Source: a bacterium (GTDB lineage: Bacteria; Patescibacteriota; Minisyncoccia; Phycocordibacterales; CAIZLB01). Taken from it: a stretch of 64,000 nucleotides of DNA. Position 1 is the first letter of the stretch, and the number at the start of each line of letters is the position of its first letter. The position numbers were made by a program, and so were the translations under genes. This document shows positions 7,235 through 51,660 of the stretch, in pieces. The DNA lies in NCBI GenBank assembly GCA_043745355.1, contig JAYTSY010000011.1:16822-80821 (forward strand), given 5' to 3'. The notes beneath the pieces are model-generated. The model did not search any database. It was not told the DNA's origin and worked only from the letters and a program-made list of their open reading frames with translations.

Positions 7235-10200
7235 TTATTTGTTTGTATCTGAAGTAGATACTGCATCGTCGACCAATGATGCGTCTTTTGCGAGTTCAAC
7301 GTCGATGCCGAGTCCTCGAAGGTTCGACAAGAGTACGTTGAATGACGCCGGTGAATTTGGCTCCAGCAAGGCTTGACCTTTAACAATCGCGTCGAAAGCC
7401 TGTGATCGTCCCTGAATATCGTCAGACTTGATCGTAAGCATTTCTCGCAGTGCGTGCGCTGCGCCATATCCAGCGAGTGCCCACACTTCCATTTCTCCGA
7501 ATCGCTGACCTCCTCCTTGCGCCTTTCCTCCTAGAGGTTGCTGCGTGATGAGTGAGTAGGGCCCGATTGATCGCATGTGAATCTTGTCTTCAACCATGTG
7601 GTGAAGTTTCAACATATACATGTATCCAACGGCAACATCTTGTGCAAATTTTTCACCCGTGCGTCCATCAAACAATGTCATCTTTCCATTTGAATTGAAT
7701 CCAGCCTTTACCAATTCTTCTTTAACTTCTTCTGCAGACGCTCCTGTAAATGGTGGAACGATTGCCTGATAGTTCAATTTTTCTGCTGCGAGTCCGAGGT
7801 GAAGTTCGAGGATTTGTCCGAGGTTCATACGTGATGGTACGCCGAGTGGTGTGAGGATCATATCCACTGGAGTTCCATCTGCTCGGAATGGCATATCTTC
7901 TACAGGAAGTACTCGTGAGATAACACCCTTGTTTCCGTGACGTCCAGCGAGTTTGTCACCCACTGACAATTTTCGAAGGAGCGCAACCTCAACGTGAATT
8001 CGCTTGATGATTCCTGATTCAAGTTTGTCACCCTTTTCTCGTGAGAATACTTTGACCCCGATAATTCGTCCGCGCTTTCCGTTTTCCAATCGCTTCGATG
8101 TGTCTTTTACGTCTCGTGATTTCTCACCGAAGATTGACCTGAGGAGTCGTTCTTCTGGAGTGAGCTGTGTTTCTGATTTTGGAGTAATTTTTCCGACGAT
8201 GATATCGCCTGGGCGCACTTCAGCTCCCACACGTACGATACCGTCAACATCGAGATTCTTGAGGCGGTTTTCACCAACGTTTGGAATATCGTGTGTTGTT
8301 ACTTCGGGACCGAGCTTGGTATCTCGTACATTTATAACAAATTCTTCAATGTGAATAGATGTAAACTTTGATTCTTTTACAAGTCTCTCTGACACGATGA
8401 TGGCATCTTCATAGTTGGCGCCGCTCCATGCCATAAAGGCAACGAGCACGTTCTGGCCGAGGGCCATTTGTCCACCTTCTGATGTAGAGGTGTCCGCGAG
8501 CACGTCACCACGCTTAACTTTCTGATTGAGTTCAACGGTTGGTCGCTGGTGGAAAGCAGTAAACTGGTTTGTTCGGTTAAATGACACGAGTCGATATTCG
8601 TGGTCTTTCTTTGTGCCCTTTACGATTACTTTGCTTGCATCAACATATGACACCACACCGTCTTCGGGAGCTACGATAACACGTCCAGTGTCGAGCGCTG
8701 CTTTGTCTTCAATACCTGTAGCAACGAGAGGAGCTTCGGGGATGATACAAGGAGTAGCTTGTTTCTGCATGTTGGAACCCATGAGTGCACGGTTCGCATC
8801 ATCGTGGTTTAGGAATGGGATCATAGAAGTAGACACTGAAAATGCTTGCTCAGTTGCAACGTCGATATAGTCCACATCTTCACGCTTGATCATGATCGGC
8901 TTTCCTTTCATTCGCACTTCAAGAATTTCTTCAGTGATCTTGCCTTCTTTGTCATAGGCAGTGGCCGCGTGAGCAATCTTGTGACCTTCTTCTTCGAGGG
9001 CATTCAAATATTCAACTTCTTTTGTGATCTTTCCGTTCTTCACTTTTACGTACGGTGTCTCAATCATACCGAAATGGTTGATACGAGCGTATGTCGCAAG
9101 TTGAAGTACGAGACCGATGTTCTGACCTTCAGGTGTGTGAATCGGGCAAATACGTCCGTAGTGAGATGGGTGCACGTCTCGGACTTCGATACCAGCTCGT
9201 TCTCGTGTGAGACCGCCGGGACCAAGTGCAGAAATACGGCGCAAGTGCTCGAGTTCAGCAAGGATGTTTTCCTGACTCATGAACTGTGACAACTGGTTTG
9301 TAGTAAAGAATTCTTTGACACGAGCCTGAAGTGGTCGAGGAATAATAAATTGTACAGGGAGAGTCGCATCAGTATCAATCGTCGACATTCGGTTCTGAAT
9401 GTTTCGACGGATCTGTGTCATACCGACACGCACTTTTTGCTGGAGAAGTTCACCGACGAATCGCACGCGTCGTGAACCCATGTGGTCAATATCATCTTTT
9501 TCTGCAGCTGGGTTGTGGTTGAGTTCGATGAGGTGAGAAATTGTTATGACGAGGTCCTCAATAGAAAGAGTCATTTTTTTCAAATCCTTTTCTTCCATAC
9601 CCTTTTCGAAGCGCTGGTTGAATCGGAAACGTCCTACAGGAGAGAGATCATATCGATCACTGCTCATGAGACCATCTACGAATTCCTTTGCGTTCTCAGC
9701 TGTTGCGAGATCGCCGTCTCGAAGTCGTTTGTGGATTTCAATATATGCATCTTCTGTTGTCTTTGCGTGATCCTTTGCGAGAGTTGTATCAATATATGAC
9801 TTTGCAAATTCACTTTTCTTGAAAAGTGCTTGAATTTCGGAATCTGTGGTTGCTCCGAATACTCGTAGAAGTGAAGAAACTGGAAACTTTCGCTTTCGGT
9901 CAATACGTACATATATCGCACCGTCTGCATCGGATTCGATTTCGATCCACGCACCTCGTGCTGGGATGATCTTTGCGCCGAAATAGTTCTTGCCTTTTGT
10001 TTCTTGAGATGTGAAAAATACCCCGAACGAACGAGCGAGCTGGGGTACGATGAGTCGTTCAATACCGTTGATGATGAATGTTCCGTGATCGGTCATCAAT
10101 GGGAAATCCGCCATAAAAATCTCCTGTTCTTTTACAGAACCGAGGATCTTATTCTTTAAACGCACCATGACTTTGAGGGTTGCCTCATAGTTCATCTTAT

Positions 10201-10429
10201 TCTCCTTGGCAAAGAATTCGTCGTGCTTTGGTTTATCGAGATGAAAACCAGTGAAGTCGAGTTCGAACTTCTTGTCAGAATAATCCTTGATAGATGAGAA
10301 TTCACCGAACACTTCCTTGAGGCCCTTTTCGAGGAGCCATTGGAAGGAAACCAACTGTGCCTCAACGAGGTTTGGAAGCGGCGCGAGCGGCTCCTTGAAT
10401 CGTGAGAAGTACTTTTTCTGGCGGATCAT
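7235..10429 (-). CDS. rpoB: DNA-directed RNA polymerase beta subunit
   Basis: 1064 aa; conserved RpoB blocks (GPGGLTRERAGIEVRDVHPSHYGRICPIHTPEGQNIGLV; GEMEVWAL). Confidence 0.95.
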   Translation of the reverse strand: MIRQKKYFSRFKEPLAPLPNLVEAQLVSFQWLLEKGLKEVFGEFSSIKDYSDKKFELDFTGFHLDKPKHDEFFAKENKMNYEATLKVMVRLKNKILGSVKEQEIFMADFPLMTDHGTFIINGIERLIVPQLARSFGVFFTSQETKGKNYFGAKIIPARGAWIEIESDADGAIYVRIDRKRKFPVSSLLRVFGATTDSEIQALFKKSEFAKSYIDTTLAKDHAKTTEDAYIEIHKRLRDGDLATAENAKEFVDGLMSSDRYDLSPVGRFRFNQRFEKGMEEKDLKKMTLSIEDLVITISHLIELNHNPAAEKDDIDHMGSRRVRFVGELLQQKVRVGMTQIRRNIQNRMSTIDTDATLPVQFIIPRPLQARVKEFFTTNQLSQFMSQENILAELEHLRRISALGPGGLTRERAGIEVRDVHPSHYGRICPIHTPEGQNIGLVLQLATYARINHFGMIETPYVKVKNGKITKEVEYLNALEEEGHKIAHAATAYDKEGKITEEILEVRMKGKPIMIKREDVDYIDVATEQAFSVSTSMIPFLNHDDANRALMGSNMQKQATPCIIPEAPLVATGIEDKAALDTGRVIVAPEDGVVSYVDASKVIVKGTKKDHEYRLVSFNRTNQFTAFHQRPTVELNQKVKRGDVLADTSTSEGGQMALGQNVLVAFMAWSGANYEDAIIVSERLVKESKFTSIHIEEFVINVRDTKLGPEVTTHDIPNVGENRLKNLDVDGIVRVGAEVRPGDIIVGKITPKSETQLTPEERLLRSIFGEKSRDVKDTSKRLENGKRGRIIGVKVFSREKGDKLESGIIKRIHVEVALLRKLSVGDKLAGRHGNKGVISRVLPVEDMPFRADGTPVDMILTPLGVPSRMNLGQILELHLGLAAEKLNYQAIVPPFTGASAEEVKEELVKAGFNSNGKMTLFDGRTGEKFAQDVAVGYMYMLKLHHMVEDKIHMRSIGPYSLITQQPLGGKAQGGGQRFGEMEVWALAGYGAAHALREMLTIKSDDIQGRSQAFDAIVKGQALLEPNSPASFNVLLSNLRGLGIDVELAKDASLVDDAVSTSDTNK

Positions 10430-10708
10430 ATATTTTTTCGTGCGTAAAAAATACCGACTTAATAATATGATTAGTGCATAAATTATTTTATTGCTCTAAA
10501 ACGCTAGAGCGTCTTAAAACAACAATCTCGACAGCCGCTGCATGCACTTCAAAATTCTATAGTGGAATACTGAAGTGCCTGCACAGACAGCAAAAAACAG
10601 CCGAGTAGCTGCTTTTTGTTGTGAGTTTATATATGCATTAACCGGTTTTGTGAGGAAACGTTTCCGCGAAGAGTCGGCAAAAACTCAATCGTCTTACGCA
10701 GGAACCTC

Positions 10709-10737
10709 ACTATATTCGATTTATCCACAGCTGTCAA
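10709..10737 (-). promoter_or_regulatory. Candidate sigma-70 promoter (TTGACA-17-TATAGT on minus strand) giving a ~270-nt leader for rpoB
   Basis: Minus strand reads TTGACAgctgtggataaatcgaaTATAGT; spacing is 17 bp and it is oriented toward rpoB. Confidence 0.35.
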
Positions 10738-10822
10738 CTGATTTTCATTGACAATTAATGTAGATTCCCGCTCGGCCTAAAGGACATATCCCCAGGCGGC
10801 TTTGACTTTTATGAAAATCACC

Positions 10823-11128
10823 CTATTTAGAGGCGACTGGGACTATTGCTATTTTTAAGCCAACACCCTTCAGGATTTTATTCAAAAATCCAATGGTGGG
10901 ATTAAGGGCTTTCCCTGACTCCATACGCGCAAGTGCGGACTGGGTAATGCCGATCCTTTTTGAAAACTCGCGTTGGGTGAGTTTTTTTGCCTCACGAGCA
11001 TCGATGATCGCTCGAATGATACTGCGGTCAATCTCCCTCTGACCTTCGAGTGCTATGTATTCTGGGTCATTCTCTATTTCACTCCATAGCTCATTATCAG
11101 TTACAAATTTTAAATCTTCTTTTTTCAT
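10823..11128 (-). CDS. higA: HigA-like antitoxin, XRE-family HTH
   Basis: HTH LTQREFSKRIGITQSALARMESGK; lies directly downstream of the HigB-like toxin gene. Confidence 0.7.
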   Translation of the reverse strand: MKKEDLKFVTDNELWSEIENDPEYIALEGQREIDRSIIRAIIDAREAKKLTQREFSKRIGITQSALARMESGKALNPTIGFLNKILKGVGLKIAIVPVASK

Positions 11129-11522: not shown

Positions 11523-12236
11523 CTACAGACTTTTCTTTTTCTTTGAAAAAGGTGCTTGAGTTCCCCTCCACCCTTCGATCTTTGCATGGTGCCCGCTTGT
11601 CAGGAGCTTCGGTACTCTATATTTCTTCTTTTTAAACTCTACAATCTCAGGTCGAGTGTATACATCTTTTGACGCGGCCCGTGATTCTTCCCTGCTATCA
11701 AAATTGCCGAGTACTCCAGGGACATGTCGTGAAATTGCATCAATCATAATCATGGCCGGCAATTCCCCACCAGTTGTCACAAATGGTCCGACAGAGATAT
11801 CAGTCATCTCGAACATCTTTTTGATACGTGCATCAATCCCTTCGTATCGTCCACAGATAATAATAATGTCTGAATGTGTATCAGCGTCTTTTATTGCCAT
11901 TTCATTATTAAACTGTTTTCCTGAGGGAGAAAGAAAAAATATTTGGTATTTACCTTTTACCTTTTTGATTGCGGCATCGATTGCTTTAGCAACCGGAAGT
12001 GCCTGCATGACCATTCCTGGACCTCCGCCATACGGTTTGTCATCAATACGTAGATATGGCTTTTCCTTGAAACGTTGATTGCCCGTCGGCTTCACAAAGT
12101 CGCGCGGGTTATAGAATTTCCAATCTATTTTTTTCTCCTTTTGACCTCGAGCGAGAATGGACTCACCGAGGTATGAGGAAAAACTCTCCGGAAAGAGTGT
12201 GATGAGGTGGAATGTAATGGGACGGGTCTTTTTCAT
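11523..12236 (-). CDS. trmD: tRNA (guanine37-N1)-methyltransferase TrmD
   Basis: SPOUT-fold TrmD motifs (ITLFPE, DDKPYGGGPGMVM, IIICGRYEGIDARI). The ORF track starts at a TTG at 12242; the ATG at 12236 is more likely. Confidence 0.85.
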   Translation of the reverse strand: MKKTRPITFHLITLFPESFSSYLGESILARGQKEKKIDWKFYNPRDFVKPTGNQRFKEKPYLRIDDKPYGGGPGMVMQALPVAKAIDAAIKKVKGKYQIFFLSPSGKQFNNEMAIKDADTHSDIIIICGRYEGIDARIKKMFEMTDISVGPFVTTGGELPAMIMIDAISRHVPGVLGNFDSREESRAASKDVYTRPEIVEFKKKKYRVPKLLTSGHHAKIEGWRGTQAPFSKKKKSL

Positions 12237-12240
12237 AAAC

Positions 12241-12274
12241 AAAAATCAGTGGCCTTATAGTGCCACTGATTTTT
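12241..12274 (-). terminator. Perfect 13-bp-stem hairpin with flanking A/T runs between the DUF378 gene and trmD
   Basis: aaaaatcagtggc-cttatagt-gccactgattttt; T-run on both strands. Confidence 0.45.
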
Positions 12275-12296
12275 GTTTAAGTCTAGAAACTGTGAT

Positions 12297-12944: not shown

Positions 12945-13047
12945 GGCTTTTCTGTAAATGTTAAAGTAATACGCTAATTATACAATGTGTGAGTGGGAGT
13001 GCAACAAAGAAAGCCTAATAACTTAAAAGTCCCCTTACTGAGGACTT

Positions 13048-13413
13048 TTAGGCTACTACTTCGGCTGCGGCAGGAGCCTCGGCCGGTGCTGACTCTGGTG
13101 CGGAGGCAACTGGTGCTTCTGCCGCTACTTCTTCTTTCTTTGGAACAGTTTTCTTTGGGAGAACGTTTCGCTTCTTTTCACTAATGATCTTGTGAGAGAC
13201 GAGGAGGTTGTGAGCAGTATCCGAAACCTGAGCACCTATACCAATCCAGTACAAAATACGCTCTTTGTTCAAAATCGTTCCATCCTTTCGAAAGTCGTGA
13301 GACCCGAGAATCTCTTGTGCCTTCTTTTTTGCGGCGTTTTTAGACTCAGTCAAAACGAGTCGGAATGCCGGCTCGTTCTTTCGTCCAATTCTCTGTAATC
13401 GAATAATCAACAT
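13048..13413 (-). CDS. rpsP: 30S ribosomal protein S16 with Ala/Pro-rich C-terminal tail
   Basis: MLIIRLQRIGRKNEPAFRLVLTESKNA is S16-like; C-terminal PKKTVPKKEEVAAEAPVASAPESAPAEAP extension. Confidence 0.9.
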   Translation of the reverse strand: MLIIRLQRIGRKNEPAFRLVLTESKNAAKKKAQEILGSHDFRKDGTILNKERILYWIGIGAQVSDTAHNLLVSHKIISEKKRNVLPKKTVPKKEEVAAEAPVASAPESAPAEAPAAAEVVA

Positions 13414-13459
13414 ATGTAGGTAGGATACTAACAGATATAGGGAATGTGGTCAAATGCTC

Positions 13460-13534
13460 GTTAAACACAGTACGGCCTCTCTCCTTGTATCCGTATCTGC
13501 GATATACAAGGAGAGAGGCCGTACTGTGTTTAAC
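13460..13534. repeat. Perfect 31-bp inverted repeat with a 13-nt loop, 46 bp upstream of the rpsP start
   Basis: gttaaacacagtacggcctctctccttgtat ... atacaaggagagaggccgtactgtgtttaac; the arms are exact reverse complements. Confidence 0.8.
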
Positions 13535-13568
13535 TTGTGGAGGTGACGGGAATTAAACCCGCTTACCC

Positions 13569-13752
13569 TGCGTGGTGAAGGCAGGGCCCCTATCTTAGGC
13601 ACCCCCATGACGTCGGTTACCAGCCTGCGTTCATCATTACTATATAAAAACACCCATTAAATACCGCTCAAAAAATACTAAATTTTCCATGAAAAAACCG
13701 CCCTCTCGGACGGTTTTTTCGGAACCTTGCCTTCACCACGCAATGTAAATAT
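13569..13752. ncRNA. Candidate structured RNA closed by a 15-bp long-range helix (strand and identity unresolved)
   Basis: tgcgtggtgaaggca (13569-13583) is exactly complementary to 13738-13752; an internal weak terminator-like hairpin aaaaaccgccctctcggacggtttttt lies at 13694-13722. No SRP, RNase P, tmRNA or tRNA consensus motifs were seen. Confidence 0.3.
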
Positions 13753-13779
13753 ATATCTCTTAATTTTCGAAGTCAAATT

Positions 13780-13804
13780 GGGGTCTGACCCCCTTTGTGA
13801 TAAT
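13780..13804 (+). promoter_or_regulatory. GGGGTCTGACCCCC palindrome abutting an extended -10 (TGTGATAAT), 11 nt upstream of the rnr ATG
   Basis: Palindrome at 13780-13793; tgtGATAAT at 13796-13804; ATG at 13816. This implies a near-leaderless transcript. Confidence 0.35.
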
Positions 13805-13815
13805 ATATAAAAACA

Positions 13816-15792
13816 ATGAACGTCATAGGCACCATAAGCCTCAACTCAAAAGGAAAAGGATTCATCACTCTCCCCGATGCCGCAAAAGATGCGGAGGATA
13901 TTGTGGTTATGCCCGAGGATATCGGTCTGGCCCTTTCTGGTGACACGATAGAAGCGACCAGTTTCAATGGATATAAAGGCGCACTGCAAGGAAAAGTGGT
14001 TAGAGTAATAGAACGAAAGAAGATCAAATATGCAGGGACTGTGACAAAGGGTATCAAAAACCCTAATAATTTCTATATCGAGGCTGATGATCATCGGGCG
14101 AATGTGACGATATATCTAAAAAATGCATCGGATTTCAAAGACCTAAAAGAAGGCCAGAAAGTATTTGCTGAGATAAATGTTGCGACATGGACCGCGGCAG
14201 ACGGACGCATTGCACCTGGTACACTTCTCGAAATCATCGGAAACAAAGGTGACAACAATACTGAAATGCGAGCTATCGTACTGGAGAGAGGTTTTGATAC
14301 TGAATTTGCGCCAGAGGTACTTGCGGGAGCTGAAGAAGCCAGCAAAAAACTTTCAAATATAACTCCCGAAGAGATAAAAGAACGACGAGATTTCCGCAAT
14401 ACATTTACCTGCACGATTGATCCAATAGACGCAAAGGATTTTGATGATGCATTGTCGATGAAGGATCTCGAGGAGAAGGATGAGCAAGGGCGACCACTCG
14501 TTGAAGTGGGCATACACATCGCGGACGTCGCACACTTCGTTGTCGAAGGCACTCCACTTGATACTGAAGCGCGTAAACGTGCCCTCTCGGTCTATCTCGT
14601 CGATCGTACTATTCCGATGCTCCCCCACGTTCTCTCAAACGGAGTGTGTAGTTTGAATCCAAACGAAGATCGTTTTGCATTTTCTGCTGTATTTGTTATG
14701 GATCGGGATGCCAATATCCGCGAACGATGGTTTGGGCGAACACTCATACACTCAAACAAAAGATTCACTTATGAAAACGCGCAGGAAGTACTGACTGCGA
14801 GTGCTGACGCTGGCGCACCGACTGGTGAATTCGCCAATGAACTTCTCGAGTTTAATCGTCTTGCAAAAATAATGCTTAAGCGTCGCAAGGAAAAGGGCGC
14901 GATTGATTTCGAGACAACTGAAATCAAATTCAAACTGGATGAAGACGGCAAACCGATTGCAGTGTTCAAGAAAGCGCGTATCGACACACACCGACTTGTT
15001 GAAGAGTTCATGTTGCTTGCAAACAAAGAAGTAGCTGAATTTATTTTCAATAAAAACAAAACTGCCACTGTACACATGGCGGGAGTCTATCGCGTACACA
15101 ATCTTCCCGATCCTGAAAAATTGCATGATCTCGCGACGTTCGTAAACGCGCTCGGACTTGATTTTCACCCGACAAAAGACATTACCCCAAAAGATGTGCA
15201 ACATCTCCTCGACCAGGCTATCGGCAATGGCGCAGAGGCTGCCATAAAAGTAGCGACACTTCGATCAATGGCAAAGGCTATTTACTCTACAAAAAATGTC
15301 GGACACTTTGGCCTCGCTTTTGAATTCTATACACACTTCACCTCTCCTATTCGACGATATCCTGACCTCTCAGTTCATCGTATCCTCGCCGATGTACTCA
15401 AGGGTAAATCAGTGACAACTCAAATGATGGCGACCCTTGAAAAAATTTGTCAGAACTCATCGAAACGTGAAGTAGAGGCTGCGGACGCAGAACGCGCATC
15501 CGTCAAATATAAACAAGTTGAGTTCATGCAGGATCGTGTTGGCAAAACATTTGATGCGATTATCTCAGGCATCACAGATTGGGGAATGTATGTCGAAGAG
15601 CCTGAAGCAAAAGCAGAAGGACTCATCCGACTCCGCGACCTTCCGGGAGATTTCTACGCAGTGGATCACAAGAATTATAAAATTGTCGGACAGCAAACAA
15701 AGAGAGAGTTCTGTTTGGGACAGGCGGTCAAAGTGCGCCTTGATGCAGCAGATTTAGATAATAGGATGTTGTCGTTTACGTTGGTTGAGTAA
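13816..15792 (+). CDS. rnr: Ribonuclease R / RNase II family exoribonuclease
   Basis: RNB signature HFGLAFEFYTHFTSPIRRYPDLSVHRIL; C-terminal S1 domain. Confidence 0.85.
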   Translation: MNVIGTISLNSKGKGFITLPDAAKDAEDIVVMPEDIGLALSGDTIEATSFNGYKGALQGKVVRVIERKKIKYAGTVTKGIKNPNNFYIEADDHRANVTIYLKNASDFKDLKEGQKVFAEINVATWTAADGRIAPGTLLEIIGNKGDNNTEMRAIVLERGFDTEFAPEVLAGAEEASKKLSNITPEEIKERRDFRNTFTCTIDPIDAKDFDDALSMKDLEEKDEQGRPLVEVGIHIADVAHFVVEGTPLDTEARKRALSVYLVDRTIPMLPHVLSNGVCSLNPNEDRFAFSAVFVMDRDANIRERWFGRTLIHSNKRFTYENAQEVLTASADAGAPTGEFANELLEFNRLAKIMLKRRKEKGAIDFETTEIKFKLDEDGKPIAVFKKARIDTHRLVEEFMLLANKEVAEFIFNKNKTATVHMAGVYRVHNLPDPEKLHDLATFVNALGLDFHPTKDITPKDVQHLLDQAIGNGAEAAIKVATLRSMAKAIYSTKNVGHFGLAFEFYTHFTSPIRRYPDLSVHRILADVLKGKSVTTQMMATLEKICQNSSKREVEAADAERASVKYKQVEFMQDRVGKTFDAIISGITDWGMYVEEPEAKAEGLIRLRDLPGDFYAVDHKNYKIVGQQTKREFCLGQAVKVRLDAADLDNRMLSFTLVE

Positions 15793-21557: not shown

Positions 21558-22196
21558 TCACTTATCTTTTGGTGCAAGAACTTGGGGGTCTGACCCCAAA
21601 TACGTTTTTCGGTGAACTTCACTTATTCCATGTTTTTTTATTGCTTGCATATGCAATTGCGTGCCATATCCTTTGTGTCTTTCAAAACCATATTGTGGAT
21701 ATTTTCTTGCCATCCGAATCATCAATCGATCACGTTCAACTTTTGCATATATAGAAGCAAATGAAATGATTGGTTCCTTATCATCTCCACCAATAATCGT
21801 TTCTTGATGAATATACTCAGCAGGTACTTTCAAACTACCATCGAGGAGTATCAACACTTCTTCGGGTTTTACGTTCAACTTTTTTAAATTTTTTTGAATT
21901 AAACTTCTGATGCAAACGGCAATTCCTTTTTTATCTATTTCTTTTGCGGAGGCGTAACTTAACTGAAAAGTAATATTATCTTTCAAAACTTCATACCACA
22001 CTTCCCTTCCTTTTTCTGTTAAACGTTTTGAATCACGCAGTTTTGGCAAATCCTTAAATTTATTTACACTTTTTGACTTTAAACGGACATTATCAAATCT
22101 AACCATTGCAGCGCAAACTGCGACAGGACCAGCAACGGGACCACGGCCGACTTCGTCGATGCCGATGAGGTGTTTAAAAGTTTTATATTTTTTCAT
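21558..22196 (-). CDS. rnhB: Ribonuclease HII
   Basis: GIDEVGRGPVAGPVAVCAAMV and RDSKRLTEKGR motifs. The ATG overlaps the RT stop by 14 nt. The 3' end contains a GGGGGTCTGACCCC copy (21584-21597). Confidence 0.85.
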   Translation of the reverse strand: MKKYKTFKHLIGIDEVGRGPVAGPVAVCAAMVRFDNVRLKSKSVNKFKDLPKLRDSKRLTEKGREVWYEVLKDNITFQLSYASAKEIDKKGIAVCIRSLIQKNLKKLNVKPEEVLILLDGSLKVPAEYIHQETIIGGDDKEPIISFASIYAKVERDRLMIRMARKYPQYGFERHKGYGTQLHMQAIKKHGISEVHRKTYLGSDPQVLAPKDK

Positions 22197-30602: not shown

Positions 30603-30611
30603 CGTATAAAC

Positions 30612-30648
30612 AAAAAAGCGCCCGCGTACGCGGGCGCCTTTTTGTTTT
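30612..30648. terminator. Bidirectional intrinsic terminator between thrS and the sortase-substrate gene
   Basis: aaaaaagcgcccgcgtacgcgggcgcctttttg. Confidence 0.6.
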
Positions 30649-34260: not shown

Positions 34261-34267
34261 ATAATAT

Positions 34268-34301
34268 AAAAAAACAGCCCGCGTAAGCGGGCTGTTTTTT
34301 T
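34268..34301. terminator. Bidirectional terminator cagcccgc-gtaa-gcgggctg with A/T runs; core similar to the 30612 terminator
   Basis: aaaaaaacagcccgcgtaagcgggctgttttttt. Confidence 0.6.
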
Positions 34302-34310
34302 ATATTATAA

Positions 34311-49926: not shown

Positions 49927-50000
49927 GTGTATTTAGGCTCTATTATTGTAGCAAAAGAAAAAGCCACATGTATTAAATGGTGGCTTTTTCTTTAACCTAG

Positions 50001-50222: not shown

Positions 50223-50261
50223 AGTTCAAGTAATATAGCACAGGGGCAAAAAAAGACAAAT

Positions 50262-50300
50262 AGGGTCAGACCCCTCCGACAAGAAAGGGGGTCTGACCCC
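50262..50300. repeat. Two inverted copies of GGGTC(A/T)GACCCC forming a 12-bp-stem hairpin with a 13-nt loop
   Basis: agggtcagacccc-tccgacaagaaag-ggggtctgacccc between the MltB-like gene and rpmE. Confidence 0.6.
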
Positions 50301-50304
50301 ATAT

Positions 50305-51660
50305 TTATTGCGCATTCTGGAGGATATCAATATTGGTCTGCAACGTCTGAACCCGACCCATCACCTGATCCCCATAGAATGAATTACTACCGCTACATGA
50401 GCGTCCTGAATAATATTTGCAGGCAGCATTACGCTGTGCGCTATATGTGCCGCCTGATGCTCCGAGATCACCCAAATAGAACGCAGAGGCCATGAACGCA
50501 TCTCTCGGGTTCCATGGGTCGGCTGGAGCAACACCGGTACTTGCCTCAATCCTGCTCTCGTTCAAAACCCACGTCGAAGGAATAAACTGTGCAGGACCCA
50601 TTGCTCCACCGTATCCAGTCGAGAATGGACATGATACGAGCGTCTTGTAGGGATCCCTACCGAGAGATTTTGTTATATCCAAAAATGGCTGAACATCGCG
50701 ACTCAGCTTCATGAGATTGGCAACACTCGCTCCGCTACTTTTGCGCGTCCCGGAACCCGTCGTTGCGTCAGCAAGATAACAGGTGCCGACATTAGCTCCG
50801 AGATTACTCTCTTGCTGAATGATAGCCAAGATGAACGCAGCAGGAACGCCCGTTTTTGCAGAGGCGTTGCGGGCATAGACTACCGCATCTCCGAATTTGA
50901 TGGCGGTAGAGTCACGTAATTGAAAAAGGGCGTTGCGGATCTTTGTGGCCTCTGCCTGCTTGTTTGCAATCTGTGTCTTGTATGTCTGTTGATCGTTTGC
51001 ATTCAACGCAAGTAGGCGCTGCTTCTCTGTTTGATTGGCCTGTACTTTTATCTTTTCACTTTCAATGCCCTTCTTTAAATCTAGCTCCTGACTACGCTTG
51101 GTGCTCAATTCATTCTTTACTTGCTCGGCCTGTGCCTTATTTTCTTTGACAACATCAAGCTTCTGTTGGAGAGATTGCTTGATTGATGCGAACGCATCTA
51201 CATCGATGAAAAATTCCATGAGAGTCTTGTTACTCAAAAAAGCTTCGGCGACAGAAAGATTATCTATTTCTCTCCCCCTCTCGAGGATGCGACCGATTGA
51301 TTCATGATCCTGATCGATCTGACCAGTGAGCGCTGTGATGGTGTTAGTTTTGACCGTAATATCCTTGCCGAGATTTGCGATGGAGAGTTCGTGGGCTTTG
51401 ATTTTCAGTTGAGCTTGTTTGATTTGGAGATCAAGTACCTGCTTGTCGCGGGAAAGTGATGTCCCCTCCTGCTTCTTGCTTCCAAGTTGAATCCCTAGAT
51501 CAGCGATCTGCTGTTCGGTCTGCGCAAGGAGATTTGTACATGCTTGCTTTTCCTCAGGAGTCACACATTGGTAATCATCAGCAAAGACAGAACTCGCCCG
51601 AAGTCCGAATACTGCGAGCAACAATATTAAAGAAATAAAAAAAACATTCCGTATGCGCAT
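50305..51660 (-). CDS. Secreted coiled-coil protein with a C-terminal MltB-like lytic transglycosylase domain
   Basis: Signal peptide; long coiled coil; AFILAIIQQESNLG and GAMGPAQFIPSTW resemble MltB/SLT_2 motifs. Confidence 0.55.
   Translation of the reverse strand: MRIRNVFFISLILLLAVFGLRASSVFADDYQCVTPEEKQACTNLLAQTEQQIADLGIQLGSKKQEGTSLSRDKQVLDLQIKQAQLKIKAHELSIANLGKDITVKTNTITALTGQIDQDHESIGRILERGREIDNLSVAEAFLSNKTLMEFFIDVDAFASIKQSLQQKLDVVKENKAQAEQVKNELSTKRSQELDLKKGIESEKIKVQANQTEKQRLLALNANDQQTYKTQIANKQAEATKIRNALFQLRDSTAIKFGDAVVYARNASAKTGVPAAFILAIIQQESNLGANVGTCYLADATTGSGTRKSSGASVANLMKLSRDVQPFLDITKSLGRDPYKTLVSCPFSTGYGGAMGPAQFIPSTWVLNESRIEASTGVAPADPWNPRDAFMASAFYLGDLGASGGTYSAQRNAACKYYSGRSCSGSNSFYGDQVMGRVQTLQTNIDILQNAQ

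Follow-up and report, generated by a model that had tools for sequence, protein, structure and literature searches.

A likely two-RNA insertion between rpsP and rnr of a patescibacterium: a tRNA-like RNA and its candidate antisense partner

On balance, we read the gap between rpsP and rnr in the 64-kb stretch of DNA analysed here (the window) as a lineage-specific insertion of about 320 bp that carries two small RNA genes on the minus strand, a tRNA-like RNA (RNA 1) and a partner sRNA (RNA 2), and that is not a leader of either flanking gene. The element probably belongs to a family of two-RNA modules that is widespread and, it seems, uncatalogued. The parts of the element lie on one strand, the 5' end of RNA 2 is complementary to RNA 1, and the two RNAs co-vary across the family. 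The suggestion of an independent small RNA in the initial annotation thus appears to be right in kind, in the form of two minus-strand sRNA genes; the 6S-like variant of that suggestion finds no Rfam match at E <= 10.

The insertion and its boundaries

In close relatives with the same synteny the rpsP-rnr gap measures about 85-160 bp, from which it follows that about 320 bp of the gap in the window is an insertion. The relatives compared encode an RNase R that is 75-77% identical, or an S16 that is 84-88% identical, to that of the window in a shared gene order. The elements of the insert are absent from six syntenic relatives, and no insert-like sequence was found in the relatives' short gaps; the alignment with their rpsP upstream regions, which the initial annotation had put forward as a source of compensatory changes, retains the promoter boxes and none of the structures. 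Likewise, blastn, nhmmer and a family covariance model (R1, described below) detected no similarity to the insert at 80 rnr loci from GTDB genomes, nor did they match it at loci from the relatives nearest in RNase R and S16, and the slightly longer gap of one relative (L160) displays no significant homology to it. As these searches recovered no orthologue of the window copy, the evidence from co-variation comes solely from distant family members. The insert sequence itself is identical across independent assemblies from other samples.

The left boundary of the inserted module is marked by the rpsP promoter (TTGACC-17-TGnTAGTAT, 13425..13453, minus strand), which lies outside the module and whose boxes are also present in the relatives L085, L087, L157, L158 and L160. 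This promoter sits between a 31-bp hairpin and the rpsP ATG at 13413, and its position predicts a transcription start about 5 nt before the ATG, and hence a near-leaderless mRNA. Further, it is downstream of all elements, which places 13456-13779 outside any leader made from it. An extended -10 box belonging to rnr itself precedes the ATG of that gene by about 10 nt. Upon alignment with the relatives' short gaps the extra DNA falls between two copies of a 7-bp direct repeat, GTCAAAT: the left copy (13449..13455, no strand assigned) is the rpsP -35 box read on the minus strand, and the right copy (13772-13778) is overlapped by the -35 box of P1, the promoter of RNA 2. Judged from sequence, the pair may represent a target-site duplication around the ~320-bp insert or a chance repeat. 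With respect to a MITE or IS origin, the direct repeat flanks the insert, yet coincides with two -35 boxes; terminal inverted repeats were not seen at the insert by eye, and the window contains no second copy of it. Nothing relevant turned up when the source contig was followed past the window, and blastn against GenBank phages gave no match to the insert. Exact-pattern scans of IMG/VR with the T arm and the loop core recovered only unrelated tRNAs or chance matches, and neither a first metagenome scan with a 20-mer nor a protein search with the spurious 67-aa ORF that spans the element produced a match. We also considered an invertible-DNA switch bounded by 24-bp repeats and rejected it, as no recombinase gene was noticed beside the gap.

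The hairpin is perfect, with 31 bp and a 13-nt loop (13460..13534, minus strand; predicted -60 kcal/mol), and the flawless inverted repeat described in the initial annotation is confirmed, the two 31-nt arms (13460-13490 and 13504-13534) being 100% complementary. It occurs once in the window and is the longest inverted repeat there, and none of 300 dinucleotide-shuffled versions of the gap attained its length. A separate Logan assembly from this species (L150), which is 100% identical, breaks off inside the hairpin at 13505. The hairpin begins at the base after the ACAA of the tRNA-like RNA and is not followed by a U-tract. We infer that it functions as a terminator or a 3'-processing element, possibly as an RNase III substrate, that would insulate the rpsP promoter. 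It had also been pointed out that an AAGGAG lies within this stem and that rpsP has no Shine-Dalgarno sequence; both statements hold, though the stem is upstream of the rpsP promoter.

The tRNA-like RNA and its partner

The tRNA-like RNA occupies 13535..13606 on the minus strand with a 69-nt core (13606->13538), and was recognized by the Rfam tmRNA model, a predicted cloverleaf and model R1. Its acceptor stem pairs 13606-13600 with 13545-13539 (7/7 pairs), has the sequence GGGGGUG/CACCUCC, which is identical to the tmRNA model consensus, and includes a G3:U70 pair formed by the G at 13604 and the U at 13541. The discriminator A73 at 13538 is followed by CAA instead of CCA, whereas the tRNA-Thr of the window encodes CCA. 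Nucleotides 8-9 are absent, and the acceptor stem is succeeded by a mini D arm, CCUA-AGA-UAGG, at 13599-13589 with a D loop of 3 nt (AGA). A long stem of 7 bp, in which 13587-13581 pairs with 13571-13565 (7/7 pairs), is capped by a 9-nt anticodon-like loop, CUUCACCAC (13580-13572), and a variable region of 2 nt leads to the T arm (13562-13546) with the loop UUUAAUU. Minimum-free-energy folding of 13606->13538 gives this cloverleaf, at -32.5 kcal/mol and with all four stems intact. The initial annotation had reported neither tmRNA nor tRNA motifs in the region; this is contradicted by the Rfam tmRNA model, the tRNA-like domain of which, and that domain only, aligns to 13606->13535 on the minus strand with 23.9 bits (E 1.9e-7). 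At the gathering score Rfam reports only the tRNA-Thr in the window, with no family reaching threshold on the element, and ARAGORN detects no tRNA or tmRNA at the site even at relaxed thresholds of 60-80%. Model R1, which was built without the window sequence, has a single match in the window, namely the tRNA-like RNA (48.7 bits, E 4e-8); as the family members were fished by a pattern from the window's own acceptor stem and T arm, both this score and the uniformity of G3:U70 across the main set are partly circular. Taken together, the acceptor stem and T arm of the tmRNA/tRNA-Ala type, the G3:U70 pair and A73 suggest that RNA 1 is of the alanine type.

In the terminator as in the acceptor, T and long stems, the G.U pairs form on the minus strand and would be A.C mismatches on the rnr strand, which speaks against the earlier idea of a switch for rnr. 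No convincing promoter of its own was found for RNA 1, and it may perhaps be made only by read-through of the terminator of RNA 2. The A+U-rich spacer from this terminator to the tRNA-like RNA (13607..13690, minus strand) contains weak -10-like boxes (TAGTAT, 13680->13675; TATAGT, 13644->13639). It also contains a frame of 16 codons from an AUG at 13689, followed by in-frame UAG UAA UGA UGA (13641->13630). We rejected this frame as a tmRNA tag, as ARAGORN finds nothing and an ending of the form ...GVFI is atypical for such tags.

The partner sRNA has a near-consensus promoter, P1 (TTGACT-17-TATATT, 10/12 matches; 13748..13776, minus strand), and an intrinsic terminator (13691..13720, minus strand) comprised of A6, the stem CCGUCC/GGGCGG with the loop GAGA, and U6; the predicted transcript runs from about 13742 to 13691 and is roughly 50 nt long. 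The hairpin that had been placed at 13694-13722 and called a weak terminator is indeed terminator-like, but lies at 13691-13720 and is not weak: it combines an A-tract, a G+C stem and a T-tract, and its 13-nt arms are 92% complementary. A U.G pair on the minus strand would be a C.A mismatch on the plus strand, and the genome uses the same terminator design at 12236-12279, 30608-30647, 34261-34308 and 49954-49993.

The 5' end of RNA 2 is an antisense segment, X (13719..13747, minus strand), complementary to nt 15-43 of the tRNA-like RNA, that is, to the entire stem-loop together with the D-arm 3' strand on one side and a single base of the variable region on the other. Over these 29 nt there are 23 Watson-Crick and 3 G.U pairs. 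At the core of this match is a perfect 15-mer between 13569-13583 and 13728-13742; hence the complementarity behind the long-range helix of the initial annotation is real, with the second arm 10 nt away from the position given for it (13738-13752). At 88% complementarity the match lengthens to 24 nt (13563-13586 with 13725-13748), and the inclusion of G.U pairs brings it to 29 nt. The closed domain of 184 nt that had been built on this helix is not borne out, as the intrinsic terminator lies between the two arms and related loci encode two RNAs with separate promoters. X is also able to form a hairpin of its own, and two of its three differences from the exact reverse complement are a compensatory pair within that hairpin. 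The cognate duplex of the window has a predicted energy of -42.1 kcal/mol, as against a mean of -21.8 and a best value of -32.2 kcal/mol with 24 foreign partners, and the complex of RNA 1 and RNA 2 is predicted to be about 19 kcal/mol more stable than the free RNAs.

A family of partnered modules in metagenomes

A structural pattern scan of metagenomes recovered at least 120 matches, and at least 26 two-part modules were found, ranging from Patescibacteria to Eremiobacterota. They include 24 distinct loci in which the partner RNA, of a median length of about 66 nt, lies 38-75 nt downstream between a promoter and a terminator of its own, and two further modules with other acceptor sequences. 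We define the family by a cloverleaf of 67-71 nt and a same-strand neighbour. In the cloverleaf a 7-bp acceptor stem is joined directly to a D arm with 2-5 bp; the anticodon-like stem has 7-9 bp and a loop of 7-9 nt, the variable region measures 0-2 nt, and the T stem has 5 bp and a loop of 7 nt. The neighbour is complementary, over its 5' ~25-35 nt, to the D arm, the loop and the 5' half of the long stem of its own tRNA-like RNA. The window copy shares the cloverleaf layout, G3:U70 and A73, the complementary neighbour, and the promoter and terminator of the partner; in the family this promoter is of the sigma-70 type, with the end of its -10 box 5-10 nt ahead of the complementary stretch, and P1 and the terminator of the window agree with this arrangement. 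It departs from the family in the position of the partner and in being without the near-invariant D-loop GG and T-loop C56 that make the elbow contact. The partner is downstream in all 26 other modules, and in the window it is upstream, its terminator ending 84 nt before G1 of the tRNA-like RNA, and also shorter; we regard the window copy as a permuted variant of the module. With D-loop GG, C56 and CCA missing and a loop of 9 nt, the window copy of the tRNA-like RNA could be degenerate.

Across the 24 loci, cognate duplexes average -47.6±7.5 kcal/mol, compared with -24.8±6.8 kcal/mol for non-cognate ones, and the cognate partner ranks first in 20 cases and second in the other 4. Transition mismatches in the duplexes are G.U-compatible in 56 instances and A.C in 15, an excess that speaks for pairing at the level of RNA rather than DNA, and so against the invertible-DNA switch. 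Within the tRNA-like RNA itself, compensatory changes are seen in the long stem and the T stem, and one contig (L172) carries three tandem modules, each with a specificity of its own. G3:U70 and A73 are retained in family copies with five other acceptor sequences, which are the only informative ones for G3:U70 and were found with a model that favours this pair. The partner promoters have at least 9/12 matches to consensus in 18 of the 24 related loci, with 7 at 12/12. The gene downstream of the partner terminator is convergent in 10 of the 11 loci examined, leaving nothing downstream for the partner to regulate.

A partner was detectable for only about a quarter of the 66-71-nt pattern matches. 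Most partnered members score 55-87 bits with R1, above the 48.7 bits of the window copy. Genes for an integrase, AbiE and DUF3800 proteins lie near several family loci, and smpB is linked in 1 of 120. No phage context was seen for the partnered modules: none of 21 matches in IMG/VR has a partner RNA. ARAGORN misses most of the family copies tested, and Rfam mostly yields sub-threshold tmRNA-like fragments; the sole look-alike without a partner to clear its gathering score (L224) does so by a small margin. Our search of the literature on tmRNA in Patescibacteria, or on RNA pairs of this type, returned nothing relevant.

Proposed mechanism, alternatives and known systems

From these parts we infer a scheme of transcription, processing, alanylation and control, in which RNA 1 has an activity in the cell. 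RNase P and 3' trimming would release RNA 1, which would be a substrate of alanyl-tRNA synthetase; the 31-bp hairpin would end or process it and shield the rpsP promoter. RNA 2, running from a strong promoter to an intrinsic terminator with its 5' 29 nt antisense to RNA 1, would nucleate on the exposed loop of RNA 1 and zip through the stem and the D arm, thereby unfolding the tRNA-like fold, and the resulting long duplex might be an RNase III substrate too. In this way RNA 2 would restrain the activity of RNA 1, like an RNA antitoxin or an antisense inhibitor. Among candidate activities, RNA 1 might divert SmpB, AlaRS or EF-Tu as a decoy, mis-decode as a tRNA or donate alanine. That the antisense sRNA neutralises an alanine-accepting tRNA-like RNA, with RNA 2 as the inhibitor, is a proposal we make tentatively, as one that falls just short of an even call; the stronger promoter of the partner, its pairing with regions that are buried in the folded tRNA-like RNA and the convergent gene beyond its terminator in 10 of 11 loci point in this direction. 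A bolder version, which we think improbable, is that the two RNAs form a toxin-antitoxin or defence-type pair that consists of RNA only and has yet to be described as a type. Here a stable, alanine-charged RNA 1 would harm the cell, either by inserting alanine at codons matched by its loop or by titrating SmpB, AlaRS or EF-Tu, and an antisense sRNA that is labile and strongly expressed would hold it in the unfolded state; arrays in which the pairs are orthogonal might then act as addiction or abortive-infection cassettes across phyla.

The roles of the two RNAs could also be the opposite, as in immunity or attenuation of the C4/CI type. The tRNA-like RNA, released by RNase P, would then be the antisense regulator and X its target, and their pairing would enforce termination at 13691-13720, auto-limiting read-through into the tRNA-like gene and perhaps into rpsP. 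The order of promoter, target, terminator and tRNA-like RNA in the window is comparable to that of satellite phage P4 (X51522, minus strand), where Rfam places the c4-a1b1 targets and the short terminated isrK (8705-8615) ahead of C4/CI (8507-8420), and RNA 1, having no good promoter, might depend on read-through. The P4 CI and P1/P7 C4 RNAs are RNase P substrates according to work cited in PMC5499578. We nevertheless consider this reading unlikely. The Rfam C4, c4-2 and c4-a1b1 models, for which P4 as a positive control gives 74.9 bits, have no match in 13000-14200 (E <= 10) or in 12 family loci (E <= 0.5), model R1 does not match P4, and there is no homology to P4 CI. The terminator is of a constitutive, bidirectional type for which no alternative anti-terminator fold was seen. 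In the 26 other modules the supposed target is a dead-end transcript with a strong promoter, facing the convergent gene in 10/11 loci, and an antisense regulator would not need conserved G3:U70 and A73.

A poorer prospect is that the insert is an inert relic, a decaying copy of the module such as the remnant of a tandem array, with the hairpin as a by-product of rearrangement. Its absence from relatives, the atypical gene order, the missing CCA, D-loop GG and C56, the 9-nt loop and an R1 score below that of most partnered members are all compatible with decay, and the family does contain tandem arrays from which a permuted remnant could arise. Yet the four stems are intact, with 7/7 pairs in both the acceptor and the long stem, P1 keeps its 10/12 matches, the terminator is intact, and the 29-nt complementarity is kept with differences that are G.U-compatible or compensatory. 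The identity of the sequence in independent assemblies from other samples likewise argues against decay.

We give very little credence to the possibility that the element is the organism's own ssrA, reduced to the tRNA-like domain (TLD) or rearranged, beside its partner RNase R. Its appeal lies in the tmRNA model being the best Rfam match, in the consensus acceptor with G3:U70 and A73, in the four stop codons that end the spacer frame, and in rnr often adjoining smpB, as does ssrA (PMC4131195). TLD-only tmRNAs also exist, as in mycobacteriophage DS6A (43.2 bits) and in many metagenome and IMG/VR examples (60-73 bits). However, the element's 23.9 bits fall short of the gathering score, 47, ARAGORN makes no call, pseudoknots and a credible tag frame are lacking, only 34 nt lie between the ends of the model match, and the terminator separates the putative P2a arm from the rest. 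A full-length stem-loop occupies the place where SmpB sits in tmRNA, the UGGnUUCGAC D-loop motif of TLD-only tmRNAs is absent, and tblastn with E. coli SmpB found no smpB in the window. A housekeeping gene is also unlikely to be a private insertion missing from relatives at this site, and the module occurs in Eremiobacterota as well, where an ordinary tmRNA would be expected.

Two further constructions were tried and rejected. A one-piece tmRNA beginning at GGGGGUC (13793) would start from a recurrent genomic palindrome upstream of P1 and need a D region of 38 nt, and the covariance model prefers 13606. A two-piece rearranged tmRNA with the sRNA as its coding piece would have a terminator between its parts and no credible tag, and the middle of the partner co-varies with the D arm and is not codon-like.

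The proposals of the initial annotation, an rpsP-operon leader or attenuator that RNase III would process or else a switch for rnr, can practically be dismissed: the region does lie between both genes, the 31-bp duplex would be a good RNase III substrate and rnc is nearby in relatives, but the conserved rpsP promoter (13453->13425) is downstream of all elements, relatives have the same genes without them, and the structured strand is opposite to rnr, which has its own extended -10 box.

If the two-RNA reading is true, a class of small-RNA gene pairs that ranges from ultra-small Patescibacteria to Eremiobacterota has escaped standard annotation. The family joins two usually separate things, the alanine identity set of tRNA-Ala and tmRNA and a co-evolving antisense partner. 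It thus makes several questions testable, namely whether bacteria control a chargeable tRNA mimic through RNA-RNA pairing, whether tRNA mimics disturb decoding or ribosome rescue, and whether tandem orthogonal pairs are selfish or defensive cassettes. It also holds a lesson for annotation, in that a big structured gap beside a ribosomal-protein gene is not necessarily a leader.

Among known RNAs, tmRNA (RF00023) resembles RNA 1 in the acceptor GGGGGUG/CACCUCC, G3:U70, A73, the T arm and the adjacency to rnr; RNA 1 differs in having no mRNA-like domain, tag frame or pseudoknots, in its sub-threshold score and in drawing no ARAGORN call. The DS6A-type TLD-only tmRNAs share with it a tmRNA-type acceptor with G3:U70, a T arm, a short hairpin that replaces the rest, a length of 60-83 nt and a match to the Rfam tmRNA model with the middle deleted. 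Such DS6A-like molecules are thought to inhibit trans-translation, perhaps via titration of SmpB (PMC4131195). They have a UGGnUUCGAC D loop and a tiny P2 hairpin, score 43-73 bits and occur among phage tRNA genes with no partner RNA. In RNA 1, which scores 23.9 bits and does have a partner, the mini D arm is base-paired and the anticodon-like arm is long. From canonical tRNA (RF00005) it is set apart by the 9-nt loop, the 3-nt D loop and the absence of nt 8-9. The irregular tRNAs, i.e. the allo-tRNAs (Mukai et al., PMC5389517) and the tRNA-Other of Bacillus cereus, have been put forward as missense suppressors and/or regulatory RNAs. They resemble the window family in a non-canonical tRNA shape, metagenomic occurrence, varied anticodon-like loops and, in some, alanine identity, and they are often near toxin-antitoxin or mobile genes. 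The allo-tRNAs have an 8/4 or 9/3 acceptor/T arrangement and a normal D arm, in contrast to the 7/5 arrangement, mini D arm and 7-9-bp stem of the window family, and a word search of PMC5389517 found no dedicated antisense partner described for irregular tRNAs.

The C4 (P1/P7) and CI (P4) RNAs (RF01695, clan CL00128), with their targets c4-a1b1 (RF03163) and isrK (RF01394), have in common with RNA 1 a small compact fold, an acceptor-like closing stem and a stem-loop that pairs, in the window by prediction, with a same-strand complement tens of nt away. Unlike RNA 1, they consist of a 17-bp stalk and two hairpins without a T arm or G3:U70, and their targets lie in the leader of a repressed operon, whereas the window partner is a putative free-standing sRNA with its own strong promoter. 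In type I toxin-antitoxin systems and in RNA-RNA pairs such as CreTA or SdsR/RyeA, adjacent RNAs are separately transcribed, and the one with the stronger promoter is antisense to the other. In contrast to such RNA-antitoxin systems, the "toxin" here would be a tRNA-like RNA and not an mRNA, and its toxicity is hypothetical. What the family shares with them is an adjacent RNA pair with the antisense RNA made from the stronger promoter, and it also has tandem arrays of orthogonal pairs.

An insertion between rpsP and rnr

A promoter scan of the gap between rpsP (13413 to 13048, minus strand) and rnr (13816-15792, plus strand) locates the rpsP promoter at 13453 to 13425 on the minus strand (TTGACC-17-TAGTAT, the -10 box preceded by a TG). 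Its predicted transcription start, only about 5 nt 5' of the ATG, accounts for the missing Shine-Dalgarno sequence that the initial annotation had rightly pointed out. An extended -10 box lies about 10 nt 5' of the rnr ATG. Both genes are apparently leaderless or near-leaderless, with no Shine-Dalgarno and a -10 box 10-12 nt from the ATG (13413-13453, 13796-13816), and their promoter boxes are kept in the related loci L085, L087, L157, L158 and L160. The closest available relatives (RNase R 75-79% identical or S16 84-88% identical), several of which share the gene order trmD, DUF378, KH, rpsP <> rnr, have gaps of 83-156 bp whose only contents are these two promoters, and the extra DNA of the window resembles no part of their loci. 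On this comparison the gap therefore contains a lineage-specific insertion of about 320 bp (approximately 13456-13779), placed upstream of the rpsP promoter. The 7-bp direct repeat GTCAAAT that flanks it (13449-13455 and 13772-13778) could be a target duplication, but its copies also coincide with two -35 boxes. Lying upstream of the promoter and absent from the relatives, the element fails as an rpsP leader, and the earlier reading of the region is not borne out. In two closer rnr relatives (RNase R 79% and 75% identical) the independent assemblies L081/L082 and L155/L156 all stop 30-100 bp upstream of rnr, where the gap content may be hard to assemble. In a Paceibacterota genome (L006, 1-1914) a group I intron interrupts the 16S rRNA gene adjoining rnr.

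A tRNA-like RNA and its antisense partner

Contrary to the initial view that the gap lacks tRNA or tmRNA motifs, both ends of the tRNA-like domain of the Rfam tmRNA model align to 13606 to 13535 on the minus strand (GGGGGUG ... GCGGGUUUAAUUCCCGU CACCUCC A CAA; 23.9 bits, E 1.9e-7, against a gathering score of 47), with 328 model positions reduced to 34 nt. The isolated 69-mer is predicted to fold as a cloverleaf (-32.5 kcal/mol) with a 7-bp acceptor stem bearing G3:U70 and A73, a reduced D arm (CCUA-AGA-UAGG) joined directly to it, a 7-bp long stem with the 9-nt loop CUUCACCAC, a variable region of two nt and a T arm of usual size. The G.U pairs of the acceptor, T and long stems would be A.C mismatches on the opposite strand, which assigns the RNA to the minus strand. 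Even with relaxed thresholds it escapes ARAGORN, and CCA is not encoded, whereas it is in the window's tRNA-Thr. A short way upstream (13630-13689, minus) lies a 16-codon frame, MENLVFFERYLMGVFI, ending in four successive in-frame stops, UAG UAA UGA UGA, which overlap a -10-like TATAGT and may hence be incidental.

The only other good promoter found by the scan of the gap besides that of rpsP, TTGACT-17-TATATT (13776 to 13748, minus, 10/12 matches), has its predicted start at about 13742, where a segment complementary to the tRNA-like RNA begins. About 20 nt beyond this start is a terminator hairpin (13720 to 13691, minus; A6, CCGUCC-GAGA-GGGCGG, U6; read on this strand, the stem contains a U.G pair) of the same design as those at 12236-12279, 30608-30647, 34261-34308 and 49954-49993. 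Together these signals define a predicted sRNA of roughly 50 nt. Its 5' 29 nt (13747 to 13719) are complementary to nt 15-43 of the tRNA-like RNA, with 23 Watson-Crick and 3 G.U pairs. The duplex is predicted at -42.1 kcal/mol, and joining the two RNAs in a complex is predicted to gain about 19 kcal/mol over folding them separately. Of the three positions that deviate from a perfect reverse complement, two make up a compensatory pair by which the sRNA keeps a hairpin of its own. The long-range complementarity reported initially is thus real, reaching 24 nt at 88%, but one arm had been misplaced: the perfect 15-mer 13569-13583 pairs with 13728-13742, not 13738-13752. The inner hairpin is likewise present, with revised coordinates of 13691-13720 and 13-nt arms between an A-tract and a T-tract. 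As the terminator falls between the complementary arms, the supposed helix-closed domain of 184 nt is better read as two terminator-separated transcription units in an antisense relationship.

The inverted repeat of 31 bp (arms 13460-13490 and 13504-13534, 13-nt loop) is as flawless as first described; it is single-copy in the 64-kb window and the longest inverted repeat there, and none of 300 dinucleotide shuffles of the gap reached it. A 100% identical Logan contig from this species ends within it, at 13505. The hairpin begins at the base that follows the ACAA of the tRNA-like RNA and stops 6 nt short of the rpsP -35 box, and might terminate or process the tRNA-like transcript, shielding rpsP. 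A short palindrome, GGGGTCTGACCCC, at 13780-13792 recurs at about 21584-21599 and 50253-50309; it scores as a bidirectional terminator-like site and could represent a terminator or repeat motif used throughout the genome.

A two-RNA family in metagenomes

As no orthologue of the window copy was found, we searched the metagenome contigs of JGI for a structural pattern (GGGGGTG, 25-41 nt, GGGTTNNANTCCC, NN, CACCTCCA) and obtained at least 120 matches. Those listed comprise 61-67-nt tmRNAs reduced to the tRNA-like domain (TLD-only), with UGGUUUCGAC and a tiny hairpin, which adjoin tRNA arrays and score 60-73 bits with the Rfam tmRNA model; ordinary small tRNAs; and elements of 66-71 nt with the cloverleaf of the window RNA, which score 29-48 bits, mostly under the gathering score, and most tested copies of which ARAGORN misses. 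Among the matches listed, 24 distinct members of the last group have a partner, a same-strand sequence complementary to loop and stem that lies 38-75 nt downstream; a partner is detectable for no more than about a quarter of the listed 66-71-nt matches. In 18 of these 24 loci a sigma-70 promoter of at least 9/12 precedes the partner (7 are perfect), its -10 box ending 5-10 nt ahead of the complementarity. The partner closes about 66 nt further on with a terminator of A-tract, stem and U-tract. The complementarity spans nt ~6-40 of the tRNA-like RNA, which comprise the D arm, the loop and the long stem's 5' strand, and in some members reaches into the acceptor 5' strand too.

In these 24 listed loci cognate duplexes average -47.6+-7.5 kcal/mol against -24.8+-6.8 for non-cognate ones, and the cognate partner ranks first in 20 and second in 4. 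Transition mismatches are G.U-compatible in 56 cases and A.C in 15, an excess that speaks for selection acting on RNA pairing in this orientation rather than for a DNA palindrome. The tRNA-like RNA shows many compensatory changes in the long stem and outer T-stem pairs. A covariance model (R1) of 21 family sequences, the window sequence left out, has exactly one match in the window (13606 to 13538, 48.7 bits, E 4e-8), although part of this score, like the shared acceptor stem and T arm, is built in because the scan pattern derives from the window element. R1 also recovers copies with the acceptors GGGGGCG, GGGGGAG, GGGCCUG, GGGGUUG and GGGGCUG, all of which keep G3:U70 and A73 and two of which have their own cognate partner. 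The contig L172 (Ga0100403_1003755, minus, about 10300-10900) carries three tandem modules, one truncated, in which every tRNA-like RNA has a complementary partner of its own, so that one array combines orthogonal specificities.

The window copy departs from the family in its upstream partner, partner length and loop size, and it lacks the family's D-loop GG and T-loop C56; it is nevertheless probably a member. At the site equivalent to the 31-bp hairpin other members have a flank-extended acceptor helix and U-run, followed by the partner gene. The hairpin's perfection suggests a recent origin, perhaps when the module was permuted by rearrangement; an array able to yield such a product does exist, in tandem form, on a metagenome contig. 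The rpsP-rnr element is real and more interesting than the initial annotation proposed: it is not a leader but a private insertion of a two-RNA module, whose family is widespread, absent from Rfam 15 and not found in literature searches.

Host contigs range from 32 to 72% G+C and include one Patescibacteria and one Candidatus Baltobacteraceae; none of 21 IMG/VR matches has a partner RNA. In nearly all loci the module lies on the strand opposite to both flanking genes. Within a few kb of the modules of L253, L276, L267, L190, L208, L221 and L176 are integrase/recombinase-like N-termini and accessory genes (AbiE-like, DUF3800 with an RNA motif, four-helix-bundle 'IVS' proteins, GIY-YIG), identified by eye from N-terminal sequences except for the Rfam DUF3800-V RNA match in L208. 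In the locus L211 a partnered member (415-482) lies about 230 nt downstream of the 16S rRNA 3' end (gene 1-188), a site usually occupied by tRNA-Ile and tRNA-Ala. In L242 a bona fide tmRNA gene (7619-7952, tag ANDAIYDQAVAA) is followed, about 340 nt downstream, by a tRNA-like element of 71 nt that has the same acceptor stem (8293-8363).

Possible function and known systems

Directly seen are two adjacent RNA genes with their signals, the complementarity between them, its co-variation across the family and the retained alanine identity elements. We favour the partner as inhibitor and the tRNA-like RNA as effector, because G3:U70 and A73 are kept in acceptor stems that otherwise vary, the promoter of the partner is the stronger one, the partner pairs with regions buried in the folded target, and in 10 of 11 examined loci its transcript is a dead end, the next gene being convergent. 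That it inhibits an alanine-accepting tRNA-like RNA is quite possible, and we propose it tentatively. The partner would dock on the exposed loop and then invade the stem and the D arm, so that the tRNA-like RNA unfolds and the duplex perhaps becomes accessible to RNase III. The effector might be a decoy for SmpB, AlaRS or EF-Tu, an option consistent with the data since inhibition of trans-translation has been reported for TLD-only molecules (PMC4131195). Equally consistent with the data are insertion of alanine at a loop-matched codon, suggested by the canonical 7-nt loops, U33 and purine at 37 of many members, and a role as a non-ribosomal alanine donor.

The chief competing model, which we consider unlikely, is a C4/CI-type circuit with the tRNA-like RNA as its regulator. 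In its favour, P4 has the order seen in the window (promoter, targets and short terminated RNA, then C4/CI RNA), and no good promoter of its own was found for the window's tRNA-like gene; against it, the terminator appears constitutive and models match in neither direction (C4/CI models against the window and 12 family loci, R1 against P4). The element fails the tests for a tmRNA (score, tag frame and pseudoknots), for a canonical tRNA and for the C4/CI family, and the 6S-like RNA once suggested finds no match to 6S RNA.

TLD-only genes of 61-67 nt that score above the Rfam tmRNA gathering score are common on metagenome and viral contigs, often beside tRNA arrays; those seen here (L167, L177, L187, L192, L213, L232, L237 and L245, and, in IMG/VR, L284-L286, L292, L299 and L301) all lack a partner RNA. 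The DS6A-type TLD-only tmRNAs resemble the window element but differ in the D region and long arm and lack a partner RNA. Allo-tRNAs, irregular, sometimes alanine-accepting and found near toxin-antitoxin genes (PMC5389517), also recall the window RNA; their acceptor/T geometry differs, and no partner RNA is described for them.
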